64,000 bases of DNA from a bacterium (GTDB lineage Bacteria > Desulfobacterota > Binatia > HRBIN30 > CADEER01), in assembly GCA_031401035.1 (NCBI GenBank), contig JANNRA010000112.1, forward strand, positions 2,628-66,627, read 5' to 3'. Shown piece after piece: positions 10,665 through 46,949 of this stretch. Below the pieces are notes generated by a model, which saw nothing but the letters and a program-made list of their open reading frames with translations, did no database searches and was not told the DNA's origin. Position 1 is the stretch's first letter; the number at the start of each line of letters is the position of its first letter. A program made the translations under genes and the position numbers.

Positions 10665-13304
10665 TTACGGTTCCGTCACCCAGAAGTTGCCGAACAGGAT
10701 GAACATCTCATCCTCGGTGCGGAAGCCGCCGGTGACCGGGCAGGCGTCGCAATCACCGTCGCCGGCGCCGGGGCTCGATTCGCAGGCGGCGTCGTTACCG
10801 TTGCACAACTGGCCCTGCTTGGCGCCGCCGATGCACTGCGTCTTGTTCACCGCGCACGGCCCGCCGACGGCGAAGGCGTTGAAGATGACGCCGGCCGGCG
10901 GCGAGGTCGAGCGGCGCTTCACCGTCTGCGGCTCGGTGGAGCCGTTGTCGTAGTGGCCGCAGTAGGTGAAGGTGCGGTCGTAGTTCGCCGCGTCGCCGTC
11001 GAGCTCGATCGGCGGGTCGAAGCGCAGGACAACCGGGTCGTTGTACACGTAGTTGGCGTAGAGCAGGGCGTCCTGCGGGTCGCGTCCGCCGCCGTCGAGG
11101 CAGGCCGAGGCCGGGCAGGTCGCCGGCTCCTGCGGATTGCACGCCTTGCCGCCGTTGCTGCCGCCGGCGCAGGTGAAGCGACCGCGGTACACCTGGAAGC
11201 GCTTGCCGTGCCGATGCATATGGCCGCTGAGCTCGAAGACGTGCGCGGTCTGGCCCGGCAGAAGCAGGGAGTCGTCGCCGAACATCGTACTCGGCGGGCC
11301 GAACTCGTGCAGGTTGCAGGTCTCCATGTCCGTGAACGGGGCCAACTCGACCTGCGGGAAGGGCGGGAAGTTCTCGTTCCAGAAGATGCGGCTGGTGTCG
11401 AAGATCTGCTCCTGGACGAAGTCCTGCTCGTCGGGCTCGGGGAACAGGATGTTGACCCAGGCCTCCAGCGTGCCCGCCTGGCGGGTCAGGTTGAAGGCAT
11501 GCGAGTTCCACAGAATGACGCCCTTGACCGGCATCTCGTCGTAGACCGTCGAGGGGAAGCGGAAGTGCGCCGTCGTCTCCTGGGCGAAGGCGAAGCCACC
11601 GCTGCCGAGCGAGCCGAAGCCCTCGACCGGGCCGAAGCCGATGCAGGCGATGGTCGTCGAATCCGGATCGGTGGCGCACTGCCCGGCGCCGCAGAAGGGA
11701 ATGTCGAGCGGGTTGCACGCCTGACCAGCGCGGGCGCCGCCCTTGCAGCTGTATGGGCCCCAGCGCGGATCGTCGGCGGCGGCGGTGCCGCGGAAGATGT
11801 CGACGATCAGGTGGTGGCTGAGCGGGTCCTGGCGCACCTCGACGCTCTTGTAGCGGAATGTCTTGCCGTCCGGACTGAGCAGCGAGGCCGGAATCTGGCC
11901 GGTGAAATCGTAGTAGCTGGAGTAGCAGACCTCGGTCTCGCTCTTGCTGGCCAGGGTGTACGCCGGCATGTGCATCTGCACGCCCTTGCCGGCCGGCGGC
12001 GGTTCGAGCGGGTCGATCTTCACCGGCAGCGGTTCGGGCACGCAGGCGTCGAGGAGGGCCGCGGCCTGCGGCAGGTTGGCGTCGCGCGCCGCGCCGCCGG
12101 TTTCGATCCAGATGCCGAGGGCCTCGAGCTCGTCTTCGGTGAGCGTGTCGGCGCGGAGCGGCATCGGGCTGCCGACCGGCGCATCGTAGTCGTCGGGCCG
12201 CGTCTTGGCGGCCAGCTTGAGCCACAGCAGGCTGAAGTCCTTGCTGCCCGGTTCGACGCGGCGCAACGGCGAGTTGGCGCCGACGACGTCGTTGATGTTG
12301 GCGTAGGAGGCGCCGGCGCGCAGGTCGAGGTCGCCGAGCTTGGCGGCGCCGTGGCAGGCGTCGATGCTGCAGCCGCGGTTGTCGAAGATGGCCTTCTGGA
12401 TCAGATCGTAGGTGGTCGGGAAGACGTCGCACTCGGTCTTGACGCAATCGGCCCGGCAGCCGTCGCCGTCGTAGTCGTTGCCGTCGTCGCACTCCTCGAC
12501 CGGCAGCACCTGCATGCCGTCGCCGCACTCGGCGGGCGGGCAGACGACGGCGTTCTGTACGTAGGTCTCCTGCGCCAGGCAGTCGGCGCGGCCGGCGATG
12601 CGGCCGAGGACCTCGTCAAGGTCGCGTCCGTAGGTTTCCGCGAACAAGTCGCCCGGGCAGGCAGCGGCGATGCGTGCCTGTAACAGCTCCTCGGCGCGCG
12701 CGATGGCGCGGCCGCTGCGCTCGACGAGGCTGGTCTTCTGCGCCGGCGTCAGCACGGTCGAGGCAATGGCGTCGAGGGCGCGCTGGCGAGCGCGTACAGC
12801 GTAGCGCAGCAGCGAGCCGGCGGCGCGGCCGGTGACGTCGATGCAGGTCTGCGCGTCGCCGGTCATCGCGGCGATGGTGCCGCCGAGCATCGCCGGCCCG
12901 TAGGCGGCGGTGACCGCCGCGGTGTCGAGCTGGCGGCAGACGTCGATGACGTCGGTCTGCGCGTCGCCGAGGTCGACGTAGCGCAGGGTCTGCAACTGGC
13001 CGGCGGCGCAGTTGTCCGCGACCATGTCGCGGGCGCGCTCGCGCGCCGACTGAATCTTGGCGTCGCGCGTCGCCTCGTCGCACGGCGCGCCGCGCAGTTG
13101 CGCGGCGCTGCAGGTCGTCCGCGCCGCCAGGGCGCGGCTGGCGCACAGCGAGGCGGCGCGCGAGATCGCCCGCTGGCAGCGCGCCGTGTCGGGATTGAAC
13201 CCGCCCCACACCGCCAGGTCCGCCGGTGCCCCGTGCGCGTATGCGCTCGCGGCCGTCAACAGCACGGCGATGAGGATCCCCCAAGTCGTCTTCGTTCGAT
13301 GCAC
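10665..13304 (-). CDS. large secreted cysteine-rich protein with a Myxococcus cysteine-rich repeat and a C-terminal His-rich domain
   Basis: Probable GTG start at VHRTKTTWGILIAVLLTAASAYA (signal peptide). It contains a CGDG..EECDDGNDYDGDGCRADC repeat and many Cys residues. Its C-terminal half carries HH...HMHRHG...M motifs. Confidence 0.6.
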   Translation of the reverse strand: MHRTKTTWGILIAVLLTAASAYAHGAPADLAVWGGFNPDTARCQRAISRAASLCASRALAARTTCSAAQLRGAPCDEATRDAKIQSARERARDMVADNCAAGQLQTLRYVDLGDAQTDVIDVCRQLDTAAVTAAYGPAMLGGTIAAMTGDAQTCIDVTGRAAGSLLRYAVRARQRALDAIASTVLTPAQKTSLVERSGRAIARAEELLQARIAAACPGDLFAETYGRDLDEVLGRIAGRADCLAQETYVQNAVVCPPAECGDGMQVLPVEECDDGNDYDGDGCRADCVKTECDVFPTTYDLIQKAIFDNRGCSIDACHGAAKLGDLDLRAGASYANINDVVGANSPLRRVEPGSKDFSLLWLKLAAKTRPDDYDAPVGSPMPLRADTLTEDELEALGIWIETGGAARDANLPQAAALLDACVPEPLPVKIDPLEPPPAGKGVQMHMPAYTLASKSETEVCYSSYYDFTGQIPASLLSPDGKTFRYKSVEVRQDPLSHHLIVDIFRGTAAADDPRWGPYSCKGGARAGQACNPLDIPFCGAGQCATDPDSTTIACIGFGPVEGFGSLGSGGFAFAQETTAHFRFPSTVYDEMPVKGVILWNSHAFNLTRQAGTLEAWVNILFPEPDEQDFVQEQIFDTSRIFWNENFPPFPQVELAPFTDMETCNLHEFGPPSTMFGDDSLLLPGQTAHVFELSGHMHRHGKRFQVYRGRFTCAGGSNGGKACNPQEPATCPASACLDGGGRDPQDALLYANYVYNDPVVLRFDPPIELDGDAANYDRTFTYCGHYDNGSTEPQTVKRRSTSPPAGVIFNAFAVGGPCAVNKTQCIGGAKQGQLCNGNDAACESSPGAGDGDCDACPVTGGFRTEDEMFILFGNFWVTEP

Positions 13305-13453: not shown

Positions 13454-15013
13454 ATGGCCGACGCGTCCGTGGATGTCCTGATCGCCGGGGCCGGGCCCGT
13501 GGGGCTGACCCTGGGCGGACTGCTGGCCCGCCGCGGCCTGCGCTGCGCCGTCGTCGACCGCGCCGCGGCGCGCACCGATAAGTCGAAGGCCCTGGTCGTC
13601 TGGCCGCGCACGCTGGAACTGCTGGCGGCCGCCGGCATTGAGGCGGCGTTCCTCGGCGCCGGCAGCAAGGCGGGCGGCGGGCGCCTGTTCGGGCGCCGCC
13701 GCCAACTGGCCTGGCTCGACTTCTCGCGCAGCGGCGCGGCGTACCCGTTCAGCCTGATGATCCCGCAGAGCGAGACCGAGCGCCTGCTCGAAGTCGAGGC
13801 GCAGGCGGCGGGGGTGGAACTGCAGCGCCAGACGGAGCTGCTGCGCTTTGCCGCCGCCGCCGACGGCGTCGAGGTGACGCTGCGCGGCGGCGCCGGCGGC
13901 GAGCGGGTGGTGCGCTGCGGGTGGCTGGTCGGCTGCGACGGCGCGCACAGCGCGGTGCGGCACGGGTTGGGCCTCGCCTTTGCGGGCAGCGCGGAGAACA
14001 ACGACTGGTTCCTGGCCGACGTGCACGTCGACGGCGTCCTGCCGCGCGACGAGGTGAGCCTCTTCCTGCATCCCGACGGCGTGCTCGCCTGCTTTCCCAT
14101 TCCGCCCGATCGCTTCCGCGTCCTCGGCGACCTCGGCGCGGCGCAAGGCGAGCATCCGCGCGATCCGACCCTCGCCGACGTGCAGGCGTTGCTCGAGCGC
14201 CGCGGCCCGGGCCGTCTGACGGCACACGACCCGGTCTGGCTGGCTGGCTTCCGCATCAATGACCGGCAGGTCCCGTCGTATCGCCGCGGCCGCGTCCTGC
14301 TGGCCGGCGATGCCGCGCACATTCACAGTCCGGCCGGCGGACAGGGGATGAACACCGGCATGCACGACGCCTTCAATCTCGCCTGGAAGCTGGCACTGGT
14401 GCAGCAGGGGCGGGCCCGCGTCGAACTGATCGACAGCTACGACGCCGAGCGCCACCCGGTCGGCGCCCTCGTCGTGCGCGGCGCCGGCGCGCTGACGCGC
14501 CTGGCGACCATTCACAGCGCCGCCGGGCAGCGCCTGCGCGACGCCTTGGTGTCGCGGGCGTACTCGGTGCGGGCGCTGAGCGATCTGGTGGTCGGGGTGC
14601 TCACCGAAGTGGCGATCCACTATCGCGGCTCGCGCCTGTCGCGCGACGAGCGGCCGGTGCTGACCCGCTTGCGGGCGCGGCATGGCGGGGTGCGCGCCGG
14701 CGAGCGGGCGCCGGATGCGGCGGTGGACGATGCGGCGGGCGGCGCCACATCGCTCTTCGCGCTGCTGCGCGGCGGTCGGCACGTGCTGCTGCTGTCGGCG
14801 GACGCGCAGGCGGGACTGGCCGAGGCGGTGCAGCGCGCCTACCCGGACCTGGTCGACTGCGCGCGGCTGCGCGACCGACCGGCGCCCTACGCCACGCGCT
14901 CCGCGACGGCGATCCTGGTGCGGCCCGACGGCTACATCGGCTACCTCGGCGCGCCGGCAGTGGCGGCACGTGTCGTCGCCCACCTGGGCGCCTATCTGAT
15001 CCCCTCACCCTGA
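13454..15013 (+). CDS. FAD-dependent aromatic-ring monooxygenase (PheA/TfdB class)
   Basis: It has the N-terminal VDVLIAGAGPVGL motif, the DR motif and GDAAHIHSPAGGQGMNTGMHDAFNLAWKL. Confidence 0.85.
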   Translation: MADASVDVLIAGAGPVGLTLGGLLARRGLRCAVVDRAAARTDKSKALVVWPRTLELLAAAGIEAAFLGAGSKAGGGRLFGRRRQLAWLDFSRSGAAYPFSLMIPQSETERLLEVEAQAAGVELQRQTELLRFAAAADGVEVTLRGGAGGERVVRCGWLVGCDGAHSAVRHGLGLAFAGSAENNDWFLADVHVDGVLPRDEVSLFLHPDGVLACFPIPPDRFRVLGDLGAAQGEHPRDPTLADVQALLERRGPGRLTAHDPVWLAGFRINDRQVPSYRRGRVLLAGDAAHIHSPAGGQGMNTGMHDAFNLAWKLALVQQGRARVELIDSYDAERHPVGALVVRGAGALTRLATIHSAAGQRLRDALVSRAYSVRALSDLVVGVLTEVAIHYRGSRLSRDERPVLTRLRARHGGVRAGERAPDAAVDDAAGGATSLFALLRGGRHVLLLSADAQAGLAEAVQRAYPDLVDCARLRDRPAPYATRSATAILVRPDGYIGYLGAPAVAARVVAHLGAYLIPSP

Positions 15014-35592: not shown

Positions 35593-35634
35593 CCGCTGCT
35601 TCCCCACTCCCGCATTGCTCCCGGGGTTCCGCTT

Positions 35635-35749
35635 CCCTCTCCCGCATGACTTGCGAGAGGGCCAGGGTGAGGGCTCCTTCTCGGGTCCCCGCCGGTCCGG
35701 AGAAGGTCCCCTCTCCCCAACCCTCTCCCGCACGTCATGCGGGAGAGGG
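35635..35749. repeat. cluster of GAGAGGG / GGGTGAGGG hairpin repeats upstream of imuA
   Basis: CCCTCTCCCGCatgacTTGCGAGAGGGCCAGGGTGAGGG spans 35635-35673. A perfect hairpin CCCTCTCCCGCA-cgtca-TGCGGGAGAGGG spans 35721-35749. Confidence 0.65.
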
Positions 35750-35825
35750 GGTCGGAAAACTGCATGAGAGCAGGGGCCGGAAACTGCCATTGCCCAGGGG
35801 CGAAAATTAGGCGAAAACCTCCCCC

Positions 35826-36566
35826 GTGGCTGCCACTGCACGGGAACGACTCGCCGCCCTGGACCTGCCGGGGACGGTGCGCTTCGGCGCGCCGACCGCC
35901 GACGCGGTGCGCCGCCTGCCGGTGGGCATCGCGGCGCTCGACGCGCTGCTCGGCGGCGGCCTGCCGCGCGGCTACCTGAGCGAGCTGGTCGGCGGCCGCG
36001 CCAGCGGCCGCACGGCGGTGCTGTACGCGCTGCTGGCGGCGACGACGCGCGCCGGCGAGGTGGCGGCGGTGGTCGACCTGCCCGACGCGCTCGATCCCGC
36101 CAGCCTGGCGCGCGCCGGGGTGCAGCTCGAGCGCGTGCTGTGGGTACGCCCGCCGGCGCCGCGCGCCGCCCTGCAATGCGCCGAGTTGATCCTCGCCGCC
36201 GGCGGCTTCGCGCTCGTCGCGCTCGACCTCGACGGGCCGCCGGCGCGCCTGTCGCGCGCCGCCTGGCCGCGCCTCGCCCAGGCGGCGCGGCGCGCCGGCG
36301 CGGTCTGTGTCGTCAGCGGCGCGCAGCGCCGCGCCGAGGGCGCCGCGGCGCTGGCGCTGCAGCTCGACGCGCGCCGCGTGCACTGGAGCGCGCACCTGCT
36401 CGACGGCCTCGCCGCCACCGCGACGCTGACGCGCAGCCGCTTCGGCGCGGCGGGGCAGGTGGCGACGATCGTCGTCGGCGAGGAACTATCGACGTTCAAC
36501 GCGCACCTCTCCGTCGCCCGCAAGCAGATGCAGCTCCCCTCTCCCGCCGGGAGAGGGTCAGGGTGA
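35826..36566 (+). CDS. imuA: SOS mutagenesis protein ImuA (inactive RecA-fold)
   Basis: GTG start. A RecA-like Walker-A region (LSELVGGRASGRTAV) is present. It is the first gene of the imuA-imuB-dnaE2 cassette. Its last codons and stop are encoded by a GGGAGAGGGTCAGGGTGAGGGG hairpin repeat. Confidence 0.75.
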   Translation: MAATARERLAALDLPGTVRFGAPTADAVRRLPVGIAALDALLGGGLPRGYLSELVGGRASGRTAVLYALLAATTRAGEVAAVVDLPDALDPASLARAGVQLERVLWVRPPAPRAALQCAELILAAGGFALVALDLDGPPARLSRAAWPRLAQAARRAGAVCVVSGAQRRAEGAAALALQLDARRVHWSAHLLDGLAATATLTRSRFGAAGQVATIVVGEELSTFNAHLSVARKQMQLPSPAGRGSG

Positions 36567-36635
36567 GGGGAGCAGACCTCCATGCCGCCGATCGTTTCCC
36601 GTGTCTCCGTGCCTCCGTGGTGAAAGGCATTTTCT

Positions 36636-38111
36636 GTGCGCCTCGCCTGTCTGTACGTGCCGGTGTTCCCGCTCGCCGCCTGGCTGCGCGCCGAGCCGGA
36701 GTTGCGCGGTACGCCGCTGGCCGTCGCCGACGGCGCCTCGCCGCGGGCGCGGCTGGTCGCCTGCTCGCCGGAGGCGGGGCGGCGCGGCGTCGCGCCGGGG
36801 CTGACGGCGGCGCAGGCGGCGGCGATCGCCGGCGACCTGGTGTTGCGGCCGGCCTCGCCCGACGCCGAGCGCGCCGCGCACGCGGCGCTGGCCGACGTGG
36901 CGTACTCGTTCTCACCGCGCGTCGAGGACGGCGCTCCGGGCACGGTGTACTTCGACGCCGACGGCCTGCACGAGCTCTACCCGAGCGAGCCGGCGCTGGC
37001 GCAGGCGGCGCTGCGCCGCGCCGCCGCGCTCGGGCTCGATGCCGCGATCGGCATCGCCGGCAGCAAGATCGCCGCCGAGCTGGCGGCGCGCGATGGCGGC
37101 GGCTGCGCGGTGGTGCCGCCGCACGAGGAGTGGCGGCTGCTGGCACCGCTGTCGCTCGATCGGCTGCAGCCCGCTCCGGCGCTGCGCGAGACGCTGAGCC
37201 GCTGGGGTATCCGCACGCTCGGCGATCTCGCCGCGCTGCCGGCGAGCGGGTTGGCGGCGCGGCTCGGTCCGGAGGCGGCGGCGCTGGCGCGACGGGCGCG
37301 CGGCGAGGACGCGCACCCGTTGGCGCCGCGGCCGCTGCCGCTGCAGTTCGAGGAGGCGGCGGCGCTCGACTGGGGTGTCGACGCGCTGGAGCCGTTCCTG
37401 TTCGTTGTGCGCGGCCTGCTCGACCGCCTGACGGCGCGTCTCGAGGTGCGCGGCCTGGTGTGCGGCGACCTGCGCCTGTCGCTCGGCCTGGTCGACCGCG
37501 GCCGCGACGAGCGCACGGTGACGGTGGCGGCGCCGAGCACGGCGGTGAAGGCGCTGCTGACGCTGGTGCGCGTCCATCTCGAGACCCACCCGCCGCGCGC
37601 CGCCGTCGAGCACCTGCGCCTCGCCGCCGTACCCGAGCGTCTGCGCGCCGCGCAACTCGACCTTTTCCGCCCCGCCGGCCCGGCGCCGGCGCAGCTCGCC
37701 GCGACGCTGGCGCGCCTCGGCGCCCTGTGCGGCGCGGTGCCGGTCGGCATGCCGGTGGTGGCCGACTCGCACCGCCCCGACGCCTACGGCGTGGCACCGT
37801 TCGCGGCGCCGCCGGCGGCGGCGGCAGGAGCGGAGTCGCGGCCCGTGCCGCTCGCCATCCGCGCCGTGCGTCCGCCGCGTCGACTGGAGGTCTTCTGCCA
37901 GCGCGATCGTCCCGACTTCCTGCGCGCCGCCGGCTGCCAGGGCCGCGTCGTCTCTCTCGCCGGCCCCTGGCGCCTCGCCGGCGAGTGGTGGCGCCCCGAG
38001 GCGGTGCTGCAGCGCGACTACTACGACGCCCAGCTCAGCGACGGCGGCGTCTACCGGTTCTACTTCGACCGCGCCGCGCAGCAGTGGTTCCTCGATGGTG
38101 AGTACGACTGA
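36636..38111 (+). CDS. imuB: Y-family-polymerase-like ImuB
   Basis: GTG start with MRLACLYVPVFPLAAW (the typical ImuB N-terminus). The protein is 491 aa and the gene precedes dnaE2. Confidence 0.8.
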   Translation: MRLACLYVPVFPLAAWLRAEPELRGTPLAVADGASPRARLVACSPEAGRRGVAPGLTAAQAAAIAGDLVLRPASPDAERAAHAALADVAYSFSPRVEDGAPGTVYFDADGLHELYPSEPALAQAALRRAAALGLDAAIGIAGSKIAAELAARDGGGCAVVPPHEEWRLLAPLSLDRLQPAPALRETLSRWGIRTLGDLAALPASGLAARLGPEAAALARRARGEDAHPLAPRPLPLQFEEAAALDWGVDALEPFLFVVRGLLDRLTARLEVRGLVCGDLRLSLGLVDRGRDERTVTVAAPSTAVKALLTLVRVHLETHPPRAAVEHLRLAAVPERLRAAQLDLFRPAGPAPAQLAATLARLGALCGAVPVGMPVVADSHRPDAYGVAPFAAPPAAAAGAESRPVPLAIRAVRPPRRLEVFCQRDRPDFLRAAGCQGRVVSLAGPWRLAGEWWRPEAVLQRDYYDAQLSDGGVYRFYFDRAAQQWFLDGEYD

Positions 38112-38140
38112 CTTTCACACGGAGAAACGGAGGAACGGAG
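38112..38140. repeat. left inverted repeat flanking the GxxExxY gene
   Basis: CTTTCACACGGAGAAACGGAGGAACGGAG. Its reverse complement matches 38519-38548 with one mismatch and one indel. Confidence 0.75.
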
Positions 38141-38554
38141 ATGATGGACAGATTGGCGACGGAGGGAATCATTGCGGCGGCGATCGAGGTCCATCGGGCA
38201 CTGGGACCAGGATTGCTGGAGAGCATCTACGAAGAGTGTCTGGCGGAAGAGCTGTCGTTGCGAGGCATGGCGTACGAGCGACAGCGCGGGGTTCCCCTGG
38301 AGTACAAGGGGCGTCGCCTCGGAATCGATCTGCGTATCGATCTGCTCGTCGGTGACCGGGTGGTCGTCGAGTTGAAGGCGGTCGAGAAAATCCTGCCCAT
38401 CCACGCCGCCCAGGTCGTGACGTATCTCCGGCTGACCAACAAACCGTATGGATTGCTGATCAACTTCCACGTCCCGATGCTGAAAGAAGGCATTCGCCGC
38501 TATCTCAATCCCGTCCTTCTCCGTTCCTCCGTTGCTCCGTGTGAAAAGTCCTGA
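38141..38554 (+). CDS. GxxExxY family protein (PD-(D/E)XK_3), inserted between imuB and dnaE2
   Basis: MMDRLATEGI..GPGLLESIYEECL contains the GxxExxY motif. The 137-aa gene is lower in GC than its surroundings and is flanked by 30-bp inverted repeats. Confidence 0.8.
   Translation: MMDRLATEGIIAAAIEVHRALGPGLLESIYEECLAEELSLRGMAYERQRGVPLEYKGRRLGIDLRIDLLVGDRVVVELKAVEKILPIHAAQVVTYLRLTNKPYGLLINFHVPMLKEGIRRYLNPVLLRSSVAPCEKS
38519..38548. repeat. right inverted repeat flanking the GxxExxY gene; overlaps the dnaE2 start
   Basis: CTCCGTTCCTCCGTTGCTCCGTGTGAAAAG. A related motif also occurs at 36593-36627 immediately upstream of imuB. Confidence 0.75.
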
Positions 38555-41500
38555 CGACTACGTCGAGCTGCGCACGCGCAGTGCCTTCTCCTTCCTCGCC
38601 GGGGCGTCGTTGCCGGAGGATCTGGTGGCGCGGGCGGCGGCGCTCGATCACGGCGTCCTCGCCATGGGCGATCGCGACGGGGTGTACGGCGCGCCGCGCT
38701 TTCATCAGGCGGCGGTGAAGGCCGGCGTGCGCGGCATCGTCGGTTGCGAGCTGACGACGGTGGACGGGGCGCTGTACGTGCTGGTCGCCGAGCGGGTGGG
38801 ATATCGCAACCTCTGCCGGCTGCTCAGCGACGCCAAGCTGCGCGCGGCGAAGGGCGCGGCGGTGGTCGAGTGGAGCGATCTCGACGGGCGCAGCGACGGA
38901 CTGATCTGCCTGGCGCGGCAGCCGGCGGGGCTGGCGCGCCTGCAGCGCCTGTTCCCGGGGCGGCTCTACCTCGAGCTGCAGCGCCACCTCGACGCGGACG
39001 AGGAGCGGCACAATCGCGTCCTCGCCGCCGCCGCCGAACACCACCGCCTGCCGCTGGTGGCCACCAACGACGTGCGCCACGCGGCGCCGGACGGGCGGCC
39101 GCTGCTCGACGTGCTGACCTGCCTGCGCGAACACACGACGCTCGACGCCGCCGGCCGCCGCCTGCTCGCCAACGCCGAGCGCCATCTCAAGCCGGCGCGC
39201 GAGATGGCGGCGCTGTTCCGCGACCAGCCGGCGGCGCTGGCCAACACGCGCCGCATCGCCGAGCAGTGCGCCTTCGGGCTCGCCGACCTCGGCTACCGCT
39301 TCCCCGACTATCCGCTGTCGCCCGGCGAGACGGCCGACGGCCACCTGCGGGCGCTCACCGAGGCCGGCGCGCGCGGGCGCTACGGTGCGCTGACGCTGCG
39401 CGTGCGGCGCCAGCTCGAGCACGAGCTGGCGGTGATCGCGCAGCTCGGGCTGGCCGGCTACTTCCTCATCGTCTGGGACATCGTGCGCTACTGCCGCGAG
39501 GCCGGGATCCTGGCGCAGGGGCGCGGCTCGGCGGCCAACTCGGCGGTCTGCTACGCGCTCGGCATCACCGCCGTCGACCCGATCGGCATGGAACTGCTCT
39601 TCGAGCGCTTCCTGTCGCCGGAGCGCGGCGAGTGGCCGGACATCGACATCGACCTGCCGAGCGGCGAGCGGCGCGAGCGGGTCATCCAGTACGTCTACCA
39701 GCGCTACGGCCCGCGCGGCGCGGCGATGACCGCCAACGTCATCACCTACCGCACGCGCAGCGCCGTGCGCGAGGTCGGCAAGGCGCTGGGGTTCGCCGAG
39801 GCGCAGGTGGCGCGGTTGTCGAAGCTGCTGCACCGCTTCGAGTTCCGCGACGACCTCGACCAGCTGGCGGAGCAGTTGCGGGCCGGCGGCGTCGACCCCG
39901 CCGCGCCGCGCGTGCGCCTGTTGGTCGATCTCGTCGCGCGCATCCAGAACCTGCCGCGCCATCTCGGCCAGCACTCCGGCGGCATGGTCATCGCGGCCGG
40001 GCGGCTCGACGAGGTGGTGCCGCTCGAGCCGGCGGCGATGCCGGGGCGGGTGGTGGTGCAGTGGGACAAGGACGACTGCGCCGATCTCGGCATCATCAAG
40101 GTCGACCTGCTCGGCCTCGGCATGATGGCGGTGCTGGAGGACACCCTACCGCTGATCCGCGTGCACGAGGGGGTCGAGGTGGACCTCGCCCGCCTGCCGG
40201 CCGACGACCCGGCGACCTACGCCATGCTGCGGCGCGCCGATACGATCGGCGTCTTCCAGGTCGAGAGCCGGGCGCAGATGGCGACGCTGCCGCGCCTGCG
40301 GCCGGAGCGCTTCTACGACCTGGTCGTCGAGGTGGCGCTGATCCGCCCCGGCCCGATCGTCGGGCAGATGGTGCACCCGTACCTGAACCGCCGCCGCGGC
40401 CGCGAGGCGGTGACGTACGCGCATCCCGACCTCGAGCCGATCCTGGCGCGCACGCTGGGCGTGCCGCTCTTCCAGGAGCAGCTGCTGCGCATGGCGATGG
40501 CGGTCGCCGACTTCAGCGGCGGCGAGGCCGAAGAGCTGCGCCGCGCCATGGGCTTCAAGCGCTCCACCGAGCGCATGCGCGAGATCGAGGCGCGCCTGGT
40601 CCGCGGCATGGCGGCACGCGGCATCGCCGCGGCGGCGCAGGACGGCATCATCACCAGCATCACCTCGTTCGCCCTCTACGGCTTCCCCGAGTCGCACGCC
40701 GCCAGCTTCGCGCTGCTCGCCTACGCCTCGGCGTACCTGCGCCGCCACCACCTCGCCGCCTTCACCTGCGCCATGCTCAACAACTGGCCGCTCGGCTTCT
40801 ACCACCCCGCCACCCTGGTGAAGGACGCCCAACGCCACGGCCTGCACATCCTGCCCGTCGACGTGACGATCTCACCCTGGAACTGCACCCTCGAACCGGC
40901 AGCCATGCAGGCGGCCGCCCAGAGTCCCCCAGCCGAAGGAAGGTGTGCAGATGCCCAGAGTCCCCCAGCCGGGACCGCGGGCGTCTCGCCCGCAGCCGAC
41001 GCCGGTTGGAGCAACCACCTCTCCCTCCGCCTCGGCCTGCGCTACGTCTCCGCCCTGCGCGCCGACACCGCCGCGCGCATCGAGTCCGCCCGCGCCGCCG
41101 CCCCCTTCGCCGACCTCACCGATCTCACCCACCGTGCCGCGCTGCGCGACGACGAACTACAGACCCTCGCCCACGCCGGCGCCTTCGCCCCCTTCGGCCT
41201 CACCCGCCGCGACGCCATGTGGCAGGCCGCCGCCGTCAGCCGCGATCCGCTCTTCGCCGGCGCCCGCGTCCGCGCGACCGCCGCGCCGCTCCCCGCCGCG
41301 CCGTTGCCCGAGATGACCACCGTCGACCGCACCCTCGCCGACTACACAACCCTCGGCCTCACCGCCGGCCCGCATCTGATGAAGTACCTGCGCCCGAGTC
41401 TCGACGCCCAGGGCGTGCTGCGCAGCCGCGATCTGGTGCGGGAGAAAAACGGCGCCTGGGTGAAGCTCGCCGGGCTGGTCATCGTCCGCCAGCGCCCCGG

Positions 41501-41807: not shown

Positions 41808-41824
41808 CCACACACGGAGGGTTC

Positions 41825-42992
<1,168 letters not shown>

Positions 42993-42997
<5 letters not shown>

Positions 42998-43415: not shown

Positions 43416-43508
43416 CATGGCGCTGCAGCCGACGCGGGCCACGAGGCCGAACGAGCAACGGGAGCCCGCGCGTGTCGGCCCGCGCGGCTGAGCGCCAAGC
43501 CGTTATCC
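43410..43508 (+). other. attC1 (99 bp): R'' GGCTAAC, R' GTTATCC
   Basis: Inner repeats GCAGCCGACGCGGGCC and GGCCCGCGCGGCTG. R'' is complementary to the cassette 1 opening TTAGCC. Confidence 0.8.
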
Positions 43509-43514
43509 AGACAG

Positions 43515-43856
43515 ATGAAGCTACCCGGGGCAGGTGCGGCGACGATCGATCCAGCGAAGGTCCGGGACTATCTGCTCTCCGAGACACATCCAGTGGGGCG
43601 TTTCAAAGCCTCGTTCTTCGCCAGCCTTGGCTATACGCCGGCCCGGTGGGACCTTCTCCGAAGCGATCTTCACGCGCTGGCCCTGCAGGAAGAGGCCGCG
43701 ACGGGCCTACGAAGTCCGTATGGCCAGAAATTCGAGGTCCGTGGTACCCTCTCCGGGCCGAATGGGCGAAGCGCATCGGTGGCGACGGTCTGGATCATTT
43801 TACAGGGCGAGAGTTCGCCACGTTTTGTAACGGCATTTCCGGGAGTAAAGACATGA
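43515..43856 (+). CDS. cassette 2, gene A: uncharacterized 113-aa protein, putative partner of the DUF4926 gene
   Basis: MKLPGAGAATIDPAKVRDYLLSETHPVGRFKASFF... Its stop overlaps the next ATG (ATGA). Confidence 0.6.
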   Translation: MKLPGAGAATIDPAKVRDYLLSETHPVGRFKASFFASLGYTPARWDLLRSDLHALALQEEAATGLRSPYGQKFEVRGTLSGPNGRSASVATVWIILQGESSPRFVTAFPGVKT

Positions 43857-44077
43857 CCTTCAAGATGCTCGACACCGTCGTGCTGGCAAGGGACCTTGCC
43901 GACAATGGTCTTCGTGCGGGTGACCTTGGCGCGGTGGTTGAAATCTACGAACCGGACGGCTTGGAGGTTGAATTCGTCACTGCATCTGGCAAGACCCAAG
44001 CACTGGTCACGTTGAGCGTCTCAGATGTTCGCCAAGTGCAGGACAGCGATCTCGTTTCAGTTCGTTCCGTCGCTTAG
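43853..44077 (+). CDS. cassette 2, gene B: DUF4926-like small protein (74 aa)
   Basis: MTFKMLDTVVLARDLADNGLRAGDLGAVVEIYEPDGLEVEFVTASGKTQALVTLSVSDVRQV matches the DUF4926 pattern. Confidence 0.65.
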   Translation: MTFKMLDTVVLARDLADNGLRAGDLGAVVEIYEPDGLEVEFVTASGKTQALVTLSVSDVRQVQDSDLVSVRSVA

Positions 44078-44097
44078 GTCGTGTTCGCCAGACCACT

Positions 44098-44154
44098 GGA
44101 TAACAAGCGCGTGCAGCCGACGGCCTCCGGCCGCGGCTGACGCGCACGTTCGGC
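44098..44154 (+). other. attC2 (57 bp): R'' GGATAAC, R' GTTCGGC
   Basis: R'' is the reverse complement of GTTATCC; the cassette opens TTATCC at 43503. Inner repeats GCAGCCGACGGCC and GGCCGCGGCTG. Confidence 0.8.
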
Positions 44155-44169
44155 TGCGTCGAGCGATCG

Positions 44170-44472
44170 TTGATTCCGATCCCAATGCGAGATTCAACAC
44201 GCGCCCAATGGCGTCAGATCGGACGGTTCTACTTCTGGGCGGCACTGGCGACGGGAGTTCTGTCGGTCGCGCTGTCGCTGGGACTGTGGAGATCCTGGAT
44301 CGCGGCCGCGTGGCTCGAGGCAGTTATCGCGCTGCCGCTGATCACTGCCGGTGTTATTCTCATCTGGAGCGTGACGGCCTATCCACTCATGCTTCTTCTC
44401 GCGCTGCTTTTCGGCCGCCCGGGCAAGCCCACGGGACCCGGTGATCCGGATGGGCCGGGTGTGGTCGTGTGA
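44170..44472 (+). CDS. cassette 3: small hypothetical membrane protein (about 100 aa)
   Basis: ..FYFWAALATGVLSVALSLGLW..IALPLITAGVILIWSV.. The ORF is bounded by attC2 and attC3. Confidence 0.6.
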   Translation: MIPIPMRDSTRAQWRQIGRFYFWAALATGVLSVALSLGLWRSWIAAAWLEAVIALPLITAGVILIWSVTAYPLMLLLALLFGRPGKPTGPGDPDGPGVVV

Positions 44473-44505
44473 CGAAGTTTCCGTCGGAAATTCGCTCGCA
44501 ATCCA

Positions 44506-44569
44506 GCCGAACAAAGCGGTGCAGCCGACGCGGGCCTGCGGCCCGCGCGGCTGACCGCTGGCGTTCGGC
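44506..44569 (+). other. attC3 (64 bp): R'' GCCGAAC, R' GTTCGGC, a perfect inverse pair
   Basis: GCCGAACaaagcggtGCAGCCGACGCGGGCCtgcGGCCCGCGCGGCTGaccgctggcGTTCGGC. Confidence 0.85.
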
Positions 44570-44593
44570 TTTCCGCAGGTCTTCGGGTAGACG

Positions 44594-44863
44594 TTGACCG
44601 TGGCCAAGCGCGACACTCTTCTCGTCCAAGTCCTGAGCGGCACGGCGGATGCGAACGTCCCCTTCGACGGGCTGCGCCGACTGCTCGGCCGCCTCGGATT
44701 CGACGAGCGGATCCGCGGCAGTCATCACATTTTCACCAAGACCGGAATCGTGGAAATCCTGAATCTGCAGCCCAAGGGCCGTGACGCGAAGGCATATCAA
44801 GTCAAGCAGGTGCGGGTTGTGATCGTGAAGTATCGGTTGGCGGGAGGAGCCAATGGCCAGTAA
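44594..44863 (+). CDS. hicA: cassette 4: HicA-family mRNA interferase toxin
   Basis: ..RGSHHIFTKTGIVEILNLQPKGRDAKAYQVKQVR.. is the HicA signature. The start is TTG at 44594 or GTG at 44600. Confidence 0.75.
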   Translation: MTVAKRDTLLVQVLSGTADANVPFDGLRRLLGRLGFDERIRGSHHIFTKTGIVEILNLQPKGRDAKAYQVKQVRVVIVKYRLAGGANGQ

Positions 44864-45071
44864 GTGGAAGTACGAGATCATCATCTATTGGAGCGACGAG
44901 GATGAGGCCTACGTCGCCGAGGTGCCTGAGTTGCCGGGCTGCGCCGCCGACGGCACGACCTACAAGCAGGCCCTCGCCAACGCGGAGATCGTGATTCGCG
45001 AGTGGATCGAGACCGCGCGTGAACTAGGCCGACCGATCCCCGAGCCCAAAGGGCGCCTCCTGTATGCGTAA
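44853..45071 (+). CDS. hicB: cassette 4: HicB-family antitoxin
   Basis: MASKWKYEIIIYWSDEDEAYVAEVPELPGCAADGTTYKQALANAEIVIREWIE has the UPF0150/HicB fold pattern. It overlaps the hicA 3' end. Confidence 0.75.
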   Translation: MASKWKYEIIIYWSDEDEAYVAEVPELPGCAADGTTYKQALANAEIVIREWIETARELGRPIPEPKGRLLYA

Positions 45072-45074
45072 GGG

Positions 45075-45164
45075 GCCGAACAAGGCGATCGACCCGCCCG
45101 GCCTGAGCGGCATCGCTCGCCGCGCAGCAGCCTGCGCCGGCGGGTCATCGCCAGCGCGTTAGGC
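45075..45164 (+). other. attC4 (90 bp): R'' GCCGAAC, R' GTTAGGC (canonical)
   Basis: R'' is complementary to the cassette 4 opening TTCGGC at 44564. R' is GTTAGGC at 45158-45164. Confidence 0.8.
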
Positions 45165-45200
45165 CGCTATCCCGCACCATCACCTCGCGGTGACCAGACG

Positions 45201-46949
45201 ATGAAGATGACAATGAGAGCACTGGCTTGCGCGCTGCTGACCGGAGCTATGGCGACCGCCGTCACGGCGCAGGAGGAGCGCGGTGCGATCACCGTCTTCA
45301 TTGCGAAGAAGATCGTCACCATGGATCCGACTCGGCCCACAGCCACAGCGGTCGCCGTCCGCAATGGCACCATTCTTGGCGTAGGTTCGCTCAAGGACCT
45401 TGCGCCCTGGCTCACGACGGCCAAGTACACCGTCAACGAAGAATTCAAGGAGCGGGTGCTGATGCCGGGCTTCATCGACCCGCATATGCACCCGATGCTC
45501 GCAGCCATCCAGTTCGGCACGACATGGATCACGCCCGAGCCGTGGGATGTGATGGGTGCAAAGATCCCCGCCACCATTGGACACGAAGCGTACCTGAGCG
45601 CCTTGAAGGCAGCGTTTGCCGCTGCCCCAAAGGCCGAGCCGATGTTCATCACATGGGGCTACAACCAGATGTTCCACGGTGACATGTCGCGTGCGCAACT
45701 GGATACCATCTCCAGCACCTATCCCATTTTCGTCTGGCACCGCTCGGCGCATGAGGCGTACTTCAATACGCCGATGCTCAAGTACCTGGAAGGTAAGGGA
45801 GTCACCGAAGCAGTGGTCAAAGGCAATCCTCAGATCAACTGGCAGAAGGGATACTTCTTCGAAGACGGCTTGTTCAAGGTTGCCGTACCTGCATTAGCCA
45901 ACTACCTGCTGGCACCCGCGCGCGTGGACATCGGCTATGCCAAAGCGCGCGATTACCTGAACTTCAACGGCATCACCACCGTAGCCGACATGAATACCGG
46001 CGGCGTCAGTTGGGACTTGGAGGTTGGAGCCCTGAAGCGCACATTTGATCGCAAGGACTCGCCGGTGCGCGTACGCCTGACCCCAGACGCCGTGGCGCTG
46101 GCCGCCGCCATGAAGAGCGCGGATGCGGCGTTTGCCTTCATTGGTAGAGCCGGTGAGAAGAACACTCGACACATCTTCACAAACGGGGCGATGAAGCTGT
46201 TTGCTGACGGGGCGATGTTCTCTCAACTGATGCAGCTATCGCCCCCTGGCTACATCGATGGGCATCAGGGTGCCTGGATCACGCAGCCCGCGCCGTTCGA
46301 GGAAGCCGCGCGCCGCTATTGGAATGCGGGCTATCAGATACATGTTCACACGAACGGTGACCACGGCGCGACGATGGTGCTCGACGTTCTCGAGAAACTC
46401 AAGGACGAAAAACCCCGAGCTGATCACCGCTTCACGATCGAACACTATGGCTATGCCACCGATGGCGTCAGTCGCAGGGTTGCGTTGCTCGGGGCGCTGG
46501 TCTCGGCTAATCCCTTCTACTTGTACGACCTCGGCGACAAATACGCCGAAGTGGGTTTGGGCGATGATCGAGCTGCGCGGATCACGCCGCTCGGCGGGCT
46601 CGCCCGTCGTGGAGTTCCTGTCGCGCTGCATTCGGACTTTGCGATGGCGCCTGCCGCGCCGCTCTTGCTTGCGTGGACGGCAATCACCCGCGAGACCCAG
46701 TCCGGCAAGGTGTTCGGACCCGAAGAGCGTTTGACGATGGATCAGGCCATGAAGGCGATCACCATCGACGCGGCCTACATCCTCCACCTGGAGGATCGCC
46801 TCGGCAGCATCGAGGCCGGAAAGCTGGCGGATTTCACCGTCCTCGATCAGGACCCCTACGCGGTCGGCGCGGCTGGGCTGCGCAACATCAAGGTCTGGGG
46901 CACGGTGTTTGAGGCCGCATCGCATCCCGCCAAAGCAAGCGCACCCTAA
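45201..46949 (+). CDS. cassette 5: secreted amidohydrolase-family (Amidohydro_3-like) metal-dependent hydrolase, 582 aa
   Basis: Signal peptide MKMTMRALACALLTGAMATAVTAQE. Motifs include PGFIDPHMHP, an HxH metal site, and later H..D motifs (HVHTNGDHG, HSDF). Confidence 0.75.
   Translation: MKMTMRALACALLTGAMATAVTAQEERGAITVFIAKKIVTMDPTRPTATAVAVRNGTILGVGSLKDLAPWLTTAKYTVNEEFKERVLMPGFIDPHMHPMLAAIQFGTTWITPEPWDVMGAKIPATIGHEAYLSALKAAFAAAPKAEPMFITWGYNQMFHGDMSRAQLDTISSTYPIFVWHRSAHEAYFNTPMLKYLEGKGVTEAVVKGNPQINWQKGYFFEDGLFKVAVPALANYLLAPARVDIGYAKARDYLNFNGITTVADMNTGGVSWDLEVGALKRTFDRKDSPVRVRLTPDAVALAAAMKSADAAFAFIGRAGEKNTRHIFTNGAMKLFADGAMFSQLMQLSPPGYIDGHQGAWITQPAPFEEAARRYWNAGYQIHVHTNGDHGATMVLDVLEKLKDEKPRADHRFTIEHYGYATDGVSRRVALLGALVSANPFYLYDLGDKYAEVGLGDDRAARITPLGGLARRGVPVALHSDFAMAPAAPLLLAWTAITRETQSGKVFGPEERLTMDQAMKAITIDAAYILHLEDRLGSIEAGKLADFTVLDQDPYAVGAAGLRNIKVWGTVFEAASHPAKASAP

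Follow-up and report, generated by a model that had tools for sequence, protein, structure and literature searches.

A nuclease gene framed by inverted repeat arms at the imuB-dnaE2 junction of a Binatia operon matches 23S rRNA intervening sequences in its anatomy

Introduction

How did a small nuclease gene come to lie between imuB and dnaE2, two genes of an SOS mutagenesis operon, and what does it do there? The question is raised by 64,000 nucleotides of DNA from a bacterium of the Binatia (assembly GCA_031401035.1, contig JANNRA010000112.1, positions 2,628 to 66,627), below called the window, which means the whole stretch that was analysed. The original prediction, made from the letters of the window, described a low-GC gene of the GxxExxY family at this junction, framed by inverted repeats of about 30 bp. 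It proposed a miniature inverted-repeat element with a passenger gene or, alternatively, a site-specific insertion. The element is a real armed cassette, ancient and vertically inherited, and a member of a large class that is apparently undescribed in the literature searched and generalises the intervening sequences (IVS) of ribosomal RNA. In the preferred reading, to which a probability of about 0.5 is assigned, it would be an IVS-type selfish palindromic cassette that is co-transcribed and translationally coupled with the operon.

Anatomy of the element

The whole cassette (about 437 bp) consists of a nuclease gene between two inverted arms of 29 nt each:

38112–38141, + strand: left arm, (C)TTTCAC followed by the octamers ACGGAGAA/ACGGAGGA/ACGGAG
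38141–38554, + strand: intact GxxExxY/PDDEXK_3 nuclease gene, 137 aa, assigned by profile matches and alignment
38518–38548, + strand: right arm, octamers CTCCGTTC/CTCCGTTG/CTCCGT followed by GTGAAAAG

A repeat search of the window located the inverted arms at 38113–38141 and 38518–38546 (97% complementary, spacing 376 nt). Each is composed of TTTCAC (GTGAAA on the right side) and three tandem 8-nt units (ACGGAGNN); in short form, the arms of the window are (CACGGAGN)3. The right arm is the reverse complement of the left one with a single mismatch. A search of the 64-kb window with a 25-mer of the left arm, allowing up to 3 mismatches, returned the two arm sites only, with none expected from 100 shuffles. 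Besides the two arms, one solo arm in the imuA-imuB spacer is the only further copy in the window.

The stop codon of imuB (TGA, 38109–38111) is followed at once by CTTTCACACGGAGAAACGGAGGAACGGAG and then by the ATG of the nuclease gene at 38141. A Shine-Dalgarno sequence (GGAGG, 38129–38133) lies within the left arm, 7 nt ahead of this ATG. Both candidate starts of dnaE2 (TTG 38532 and GTG 38541) are located within the right arm. The gene for the polymerase has no Shine-Dalgarno sequence of its own, and its start at 38541 overlaps the end of the nuclease ORF by 14 nt. The GC content of the element is 0.589, compared with 0.78 for imuB and 0.73 for dnaE2. Thus, the original prediction was correct in the inverted repeats and their place, in the low-GC GxxExxY gene of 137 aa between imuB and dnaE2 and in a left repeat that supplies the Shine-Dalgarno sequence. 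It was also correct in placing the dnaE2 starts inside the right repeat, whereas the stop codon of the nuclease gene (TGA, 38552–38554), which it had placed there too, is found 4 nt past the repeat.

The protein matches PF13366 with 140 bits (cut-off 22) and TIGR04256 (GxxExxY) with 144 bits (cut-off 35). The motif G24, E27, Y30 and the catalytic residues D67, E77 and K79 are invariant in an alignment of 28 sequences that includes the window protein. Residues 126–137 are encoded by the right arm and are predicted to be disordered. In the AlphaFold model (pLDDT 87.6) the protein is a minimal PD-(D/E)XK fold, closest to Cas4 and lambda exonuclease, if weakly so: the best matches among solved structures are Cas4 SSO0001 and lambda-exonuclease-like nucleases (TM about 0.5). 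The function of PF13366 is listed as unknown, and the PF13366/TIGR04256 family is very large (at least 7,980 relatives). A phage origin was considered and rejected; a single weak relative was found in 2.9 million viral contigs and the nuclease has no PHROG match.

Likeness to 23S rRNA intervening sequences

The anatomy of the cassette matches that of the published IVS in the 23S rRNA of Coxiella. The Coxiella IVS is a selfish element of 428–444 nt with a 28-bp terminal stem, within which RNase III cuts. Three or four tandem heptamers, in strain-variable number, directly precede the start codon of S23p, and the ORF shows decay, with one strain having lost 176 bp of it (PMC4990558). The ORF-bearing 23S rRNA IVS of Coxiella burnetii and Leptospira (S23p/PF05635) share with the element described here a length of about 430 nt, a stem of 28–29 bp and an ORF of about 125 aa. 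Tandem repeats of 7–8 nt stand directly before the start codon in variable copy number, the ORF is oriented in the sense of the host transcript without a promoter of its own, and large internal deletions of the ORF occur in which the stem persists.

The differences concern the site and the cargo. The window element is located at an mRNA operon junction and not in helix 25 or 45 of the 23S rRNA, its cargo is a PD-(D/E)XK protein (PF13366) and not a four-helix bundle (S23p/PF05635), and its repeat unit comprises 8 nt with a conserved core. Furthermore, its ORF is intact and under purifying selection, unlike the decaying ORF of the IVS.

Pairing of the arms and expression of the cassette

In the predicted minimum-free-energy fold of the RNA, the two arms form a helix of about 29 bp (z = -3.7), in which both initiation regions are buried. 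Arm pairs of the slot elements change in all units together (CACGGAG/CTCCGTG, CACAGAG/CTCTGTG, CGCAGAG/CTCTGCG, CGCGGAG/CTCCGCG and CGCGAAG/CTTCGCG). Among 18 orthologous elements 96% of the cells are paired, compared with 34–56% in slid registers, and both sides have changed in 12 of 22 pairs, a level reached by none of 500 shuffles; the alignment was fitted by a diagonal search on related sequences, so that independence is overstated.

No promoter-like site was detected before the nuclease ORF and no terminator-like site in the region 35600–39000. Most likely, therefore, the cassette is read through from the operon promoter. A role of the arms as a terminator was rejected for lack of a terminator signal. 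The cassette, with neither promoter nor terminator of its own, is probably transcribed with the operon and translated in a relay. A ribosome that finishes imuB at the foot of the left arm would expose the Shine-Dalgarno sequence of this arm, upon which the nuclease would be translated. The nuclease ORF crosses the right arm and stops 9–14 nt after the dnaE2 start, and this would lead to translation of dnaE2. The relay from imuB via the nuclease to dnaE2 would replace the stop/start overlap of the ancestral junction.

In untranslated RNA the arms may seal off the cassette by forming a duplex of about 29 bp, which RNase III would cut; by analogy with the IVS this is conceivable, at slightly less than even odds. 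Somewhat more tentatively, the nuclease may recognise the repeats of its own arms, in DNA or in RNA, and serve the spread, retention or self-regulation of the cassette and not translesion synthesis.

The same slot in related genomes

The cassette and the same kind of arms are present in the imuB-dnaE2 slot of more than 20 related metagenomic lineages. Five homologues of the nuclease (63–79% identity) are all positioned between imuB and dnaE2 and all have arms; at these orthologous loci the gene is accompanied by the repeats and does not stand without them, so that the refuting case named in the original prediction, orthologous loci with the gene but no repeats, did not arise. The relatives are labelled Candidatus Binatia, 'Deltaproteobacteria' or 'bacterium'. 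The C-terminal tails of close homologues (LRSSVPPCE, LRVSVPPW, SASxRLCGE) and some N-terminal extensions (FHRGGTEDTEE) are translated repeats of the same kind.

The nuclease has diverged as far as the neighbouring ImuB. Identities of nuclease and ImuB, respectively, are 78.6% and 79.5% between the window and the related locus L003, 62.5% and 61.1% between the window and L007, and 60.2% for both proteins between L003 and L007. All 21 slot copies group in a single clade without other members when 103 GxxExxY proteins are placed in a neighbour-joining tree, and dN/dS is about 0.10 for intact nuclease copies vs 0.33–0.36 for ImuB. The parallel divergence, the single clade and the low dN/dS point to a single ancient entry into the slot, after which the gene was kept intact. 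An ancestor of a broad clade already had the cassette at the junction, and it has been passed on together with the operon from then on.

Low GC content is no mark of recent arrival, given this parallel divergence and the single clade of slot copies; it persists in every lineage. The G+C content at third codon positions (GC3) of the nuclease gene is 0.73 in the window (genome 0.93–0.94) and 0.61 in L003 (against 0.96), with the same gap in L007. Between the window and L003 its dS amounts to 1.7, compared with 0.37 for the adjacent imuB, at equal amino-acid divergences.

A census of the slot was obtained from a metagenome scan with the DnaE2 N-terminus, which yielded 80 further junctions. About 15 of them hold an intact GxxExxY cassette. 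Five hold a gene of PF05635 (23S_rRNA_IVP, S23p/Avd-like) with different arm units, two hold cargo-less hairpins of another octamer (GCTACGGG), and several contain GxxExxY or PF05635 remnants with internal deletions. At least 15 junctions are empty, mostly with an overlap between the stop of imuB and the ATG of dnaE2 (tATGACTGActac; the overlap sequence is ATGACTGA and an empty junction reads GTATGACTGACTAC). Judged by these empty slots, stop and start overlap tightly at a normal junction, and the element has been inserted there. The normal adjacency of imuB and dnaE2 assumed in the original prediction is borne out by at least 15 related loci, where the imuB stop overlaps the dnaE2 start or lies within a few bases of it, and uninterrupted junctions in relatives were found together with differently occupied and decayed ones. 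The proposal of a site-specific insertion that recognises the motif is unsupported, since the motif belongs to the element and not to the target.

The distribution was compared with a neighbour-joining tree of DnaE2 N-termini, which comprises 222 columns, carries no support values and cannot separate ancestral emptiness from precise loss. In this tree, every readable junction in the subclade of the window has the cassette, which is intact except in L101, where an internal part is deleted. In the sister subclade, junctions with GxxExxY, with PF05635, with deleted copies and with no insert are mixed.

Seven contigs from several samples (L101, L182–L187) represent the closest relatives of the window (ImuB about 96% identical). 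In all seven, an in-frame deletion of 132 nt has taken out D67, E77 and K79, which leaves an allele of 93 aa. Both arms and the 14-nt overlap with dnaE2 are retained. The deletion allele, with the overlap preserved, is consistent with the proposed translation relay. It also shows that the nuclease is dispensable and that the cassette decays by internal deletion.

These data bear on the idea that the nuclease is a domesticated subunit of the ImuA-ImuB-DnaE2 mutasome which processes DNA ends or flaps in SOS translesion synthesis, with the arms as expression signals. A position kept in more than 20 lineages, a divergence that tracks ImuB, a dN/dS of about 0.1 and an expression tied to the operon, without promoter or terminator of its own, would fit such a subunit. 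The catalytic core is missing, however, from the closest relatives of the window, and sister lineages have an unrelated four-helix-bundle gene in its stead or have lost the gene. Close homologues reside in unrelated operons, such as that of the methylmalonyl-CoA mutase and B12-binding genes, and none of the 80 GxxExxY loci of other genomes, among the matches listed, adjoins imuB or dnaE2. A mutasome subunit is thus improbable.

Purifying selection without evident mobility could also indicate an addiction or defence module, with the nuclease as toxin or immune effector and its synthesis held back by the arm duplex or by arm RNA. The Shine-Dalgarno sequence and start codon are sequestered in the predicted stem, as expected for such restraint, and the protein has a weak likeness to Cas4 in fold and sequence. 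This likeness is, however, the only match of the nuclease to models of known defence systems. There is no partner gene, and the deleted alleles persist in natural populations, which makes this explanation about as improbable as the preceding one.

Some further junctions have other contents. In a more distant lineage (L156, L161 and L166; gap 149–166 nt) a small, very basic ORF (MKKKAPPIVVPKPKRRIP...KHKK) is found and no armed cassette. The junction of L108 (gap 274 nt) contains two tandem copies of a GC-rich repeat of about 120 nt that belongs to a different repeat family. In L131 and L160 the arm unit of the PF05635 type (CGACTATC) resembles the native dnaE2 start (GACTAYRTCGAG). The arms may be built from target sequence there; coincidence is also possible.

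Arms around GxxExxY genes in other phyla

A genome scan with the family alignment, which gave at least 600 matching stretches, provided a sample of 80 loci from about 15 phyla. All counts in this section hold among the matches listed. For each gene, the best ungapped inverted repeat was scored between the 90 nt upstream and the last 50 nt of the gene plus 90 nt downstream. The score is 12 or higher for 44 of 86 GxxExxY genes vs 2 of 277 displaced control window pairs, with arms of 29 nt in the median. In these loci, period-8 tandem arrays outnumber those of period 7 threefold and those of period 10 elevenfold. Two or more copies of the heptamer CRCNRAG are present upstream of 35 of 60 genes (control 4/240), and two or more of its complements downstream of 41 of 60 (control 6/240); the commonest heptamers are CACAGAG, CACGGAG and CGCAGAG. 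The CRCNRAG core and the TTCAC...GTGAA termini are conserved across phyla. Accordingly, the architecture is common to about half of the sampled GxxExxY genes.

The purine-type arm is the upstream one in 41 of 50 elements. With neighbours assigned by a crude ORF rule, the genes on either side run in the direction of the cargo in 33 cases, and both run against it in 3. No 23S rRNA motif was found near any GxxExxY locus. Two contigs are binned as archaeal, one of which (L085) carries arms. The literature on GxxExxY, PF13366, TIGR04256 and the arm repeats that was searched contains no description of this architecture.

The sixth homologue of the window nuclease (67% identity, L100:6001–6480) is located between genes for methylmalonyl-CoA mutase and a B12-binding domain. 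Here, another normally adjacent gene pair is split by a GxxExxY gene.

A second cargo and hairpins without cargo

The same architecture, with other arm units, is formed by PF05635 cassettes in neighbouring slots of the operon. PF05635 genes with arms of inverted tandem units are present in the imuA-imuB spacer of L097 and L099 (units of 7 nt) and, as seen in the census, in the imuB-dnaE2 slot of relatives. An unrelated PF05635 gene on a Verrucomicrobia contig has inverted GTGTCGCG units on both sides.

PF05635 genes are also found inside dnaE2. In L003 (12773–13573) such a gene is flanked by the inverted octamer arrays GTTGTTAG/CTAACAAC within the dnaE2 coding sequence, and a PF05635 gene with inverted octamer arrays is located likewise in L007 (13192–13795). 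The same is observed in L096, L099, L102, L109, L115, L131, L142, L154, L160 and L176. In L003 and L007, where the frame was checked, the polymerase frame is open through the insert of about 800 nt, with ORFs of 1219 aa and 1293 aa, respectively, compared with 1091 aa in the window, where dnaE2 has no PF05635 insert.

The dnaE2 gene of L007 contains in-frame hairpins without cargo (12949–13030 and 13711–13795), which consist of four GCGGTTAN, a 17-nt loop and four CTAACCGC. A single tandem array of this unit is present in imuB of L007 (9605–9639), and further PNNPTTNNPTT stretches in the PHP domain resemble the same hairpin inserts.

Comparison with mobile and palindromic elements

The Correia elements of Neisseria, the enterobacterial ERIC sequences and the Rickettsia palindromic elements are imperfect palindromes inside operon transcripts. 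They are non-coding and exist in many near-identical copies. Correia elements are processed by RNase III. The Rickettsia elements enter coding genes without disrupting the frame, as do the cargo-less hairpins and the PF05635 cassette within dnaE2 and imuB of relatives. Unlike all three groups of palindromes, the cassette has a conserved protein gene in its loop and arms of tandem units, and the copies examined, including two on one contig, differ in the unit.

In REP/RAYT systems, a short repeat stands in inverted copies on both sides of a gene and also exists alone. The cassette resembles them, as its gene is flanked by an inverted short repeat that is also found without the gene. It resembles free-standing homing endonuclease genes as well, as a small nuclease gene with conserved neighbours whose junction is occupied, decayed or empty among relatives; in contrast to these, its copies have been inherited vertically over long periods. 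The protein belongs to the PD-(D/E)XK GxxExxY family and not to the HUH, GIY-YIG, HNH or LAGLIDADG families of RAYT and homing proteins.

The strongest competitor of an IVS-type cassette is a minimal DNA transposon or homing element, whose arms would be terminal inverted repeats with several binding sites and whose nuclease would bind the arm heptamers, cut DNA and move or copy the cassette into gene junctions; the cargo-less hairpins would be its non-autonomous derivatives. Conservation of the CRCNRAG core and of the TTCAC...GTGAA termini across phyla agrees with this, and PF05635 cassettes with different arm units are expected if each cargo recognises its own arms. Depending on the lineage, the slot holds the cassette, lacks it or has a replacement. 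In the DnaE2 tree, pristine empty sites are scattered among the occupied ones, and the intact, decayed and lost states recall the life cycle of homing endonuclease genes. Against these points stands the lack of a target-site duplication signal: in 40 elements, direct repeats beside the arms are no commoner than in shuffled pairings. The pentanucleotide CTGAC on both sides of the window element was therefore treated as a chance occurrence. Furthermore, two copies on a single contig differ in the arm unit, and near-identity was not seen among the copies examined. Long immobility is implied by the slot copies, which fall into a single clade and have diverged along with the host genes. A specificity for many insertion sites would be hard to encode in a small conserved protein, and we know of no strand-transfer activity in a PD-(D/E)XK protein of 125 aa. 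A transposon or homing element of this kind is therefore unlikely, though it is the least improbable of the competing explanations. Of the miniature inverted-repeat element with a passenger gene in the original prediction, the discrete armed element that interrupts the junction has held up; a classical miniature inverted-repeat element or transposon is unlikely, as there is no target-site duplication signal and the copies examined differ.

Weighing the IVS-type cassette

Several results weigh against an IVS-type cassette that is selfish and acts through its RNA. The GC3 of the nuclease gene stays at 0.73 in a genome with a GC3 of 0.93, and strong purifying selection over a long vertical descent is unusual in a purely selfish gene. 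Arm mismatches have no strand-specific excess of G:U (71 vs 53, p = 0.13), so that pairing could be kept in the DNA itself, for instance through template switching from one arm to the other, instead of by selection on RNA. The heptamer core is conserved in sequence and not in complementarity alone, which favours recognition by a protein over a generic duplex. An armed element is present on the contig binned as archaeal (L085), and bacterial RNase III is, to our knowledge, missing from most archaea. Finally, among the matches listed, the ORF ends before the right arm in 28 of 41 general elements; thus, the translation relay is not universal. Taken together, the absence of a G:U excess, the conserved core and the archaeal-binned element make it more likely that the cargo protein recognises the arms.

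Operon context

The remaining features of the operon are:

35826–36566, + strand: ImuA-like (RecA-fold) gene, first of the imu cassette, by profile match
36598–36628, + strand: solo right-arm-like array GTGTCTCCGTGCCTCCGTGGTGAAAGG in the imuA-imuB spacer
36636–38111, + strand: ImuB-like Y-family (IMS) gene, with its stop codon adjoining the left arm
38532/38541–41807, + strand: dnaE2, error-prone DNA polymerase (NF004225, 1260 bits; cut-off 939)
41810–41819, + strand: single left-arm-like unit CACACGGAGG between the dnaE2 stop and the integron integrase start
41825–42997, + strand: integron integrase gene directly 3' of dnaE2 (TIGR02249, 439.7 bits; cut-off 265)

A DnaE2-type polymerase is preceded by a Y-family ImuB and a RecA-fold ImuA, which is the composition of an imuA-imuB-dnaE2 mutagenesis cassette. 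ImuA matches NF033429 with 64 bits, under the cut-off of 150, and is accordingly termed ImuA-like only; the profile match of ImuB is limited to the IMS domain. A scan for the LexA-box consensus around the operon gave no convincing site. Rfam at gathering thresholds, applied to the whole window, found no match at the element and no rRNA.

The solo array at 36598–36628, probably left over from a second cassette, is missing in the closest relatives, where the imuA-imuB spacer comprises 4 nt. The unit at 41810–41819 may be merely a ribosome-binding site. REP-like palindromes (CCCTCTCCCGC...GCGGGAGAGGG(TCAGGGTGAGGG)) are observed upstream of imuA and at its 3' end (35600–35760 and 36545–36575; also at the L155 junction). 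The one at the 3' end of imuA is absent from the closest relatives (L182).

In L003 and L099, a co-oriented gene with the integrase domains PF13495 and PF00589 directly follows dnaE2. A low-GC stretch of the window (43500–46400) contains small ORFs without family matches and could be the cassette array of the integrase.

The bona fide integron integrase directly 3' of dnaE2, in a synteny kept in relatives, suggests yet another origin: the nuclease gene could be an integron gene cassette placed by this neighbour, with the arms as attC-like folded sites. attC sites are imperfect palindromes recognised by their structure, as such an origin would require. The arms, however, are located on both sides of the ORF and do not form one compact 3' site, and neither arm contains the core sites GTTRRRY / RYYYAAC. 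Arm layout and sequence thus exclude a reading of the arms as attC. Moreover, no tyrosine recombinase was found among the called neighbours of the other GxxExxY loci examined. The integron explanation is the least credible of those considered and has very little probability left.

Implications

The GxxExxY cassettes, the armed S23p/Avd-like cassettes and the cargo-less hairpins could be one superfamily of minimal mobile cassettes in which each cargo recognises its own arms. This wider view is doubtful at present, and no description of such a superfamily was found in the literature searched. Its members would have settled in operon junctions, in frame within coding sequences and in 23S rRNA, in bacteria and possibly in archaea (one archaeal-binned contig). 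If it exists, the origin of the rRNA intervening sequences would be explained and two very large families would be given a function. The cassettes described here tie the 30-year-old puzzle of the rRNA intervening sequences to a much larger population of elements.

GxxExxY and PF05635 genes have often been taken to work together with the genes beside them, as in cas loci. In one study of these loci, PF05635 genes wedged between cmr genes were read as functionally associated; the present data suggest that they are cassette insertions. GxxExxY and PF05635 genes are seen here to be self-contained armed cassettes, placed in sense orientation at operon junctions, and such gene neighbourhoods have to be reread. 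Candidate substrates of the nuclease are now concrete, namely the arm heptamer CRCNRAG and the 29-bp arm duplex. The SOS mutasome operon itself can hold up to three cassettes, one of them within dnaE2, with the reading frames kept.

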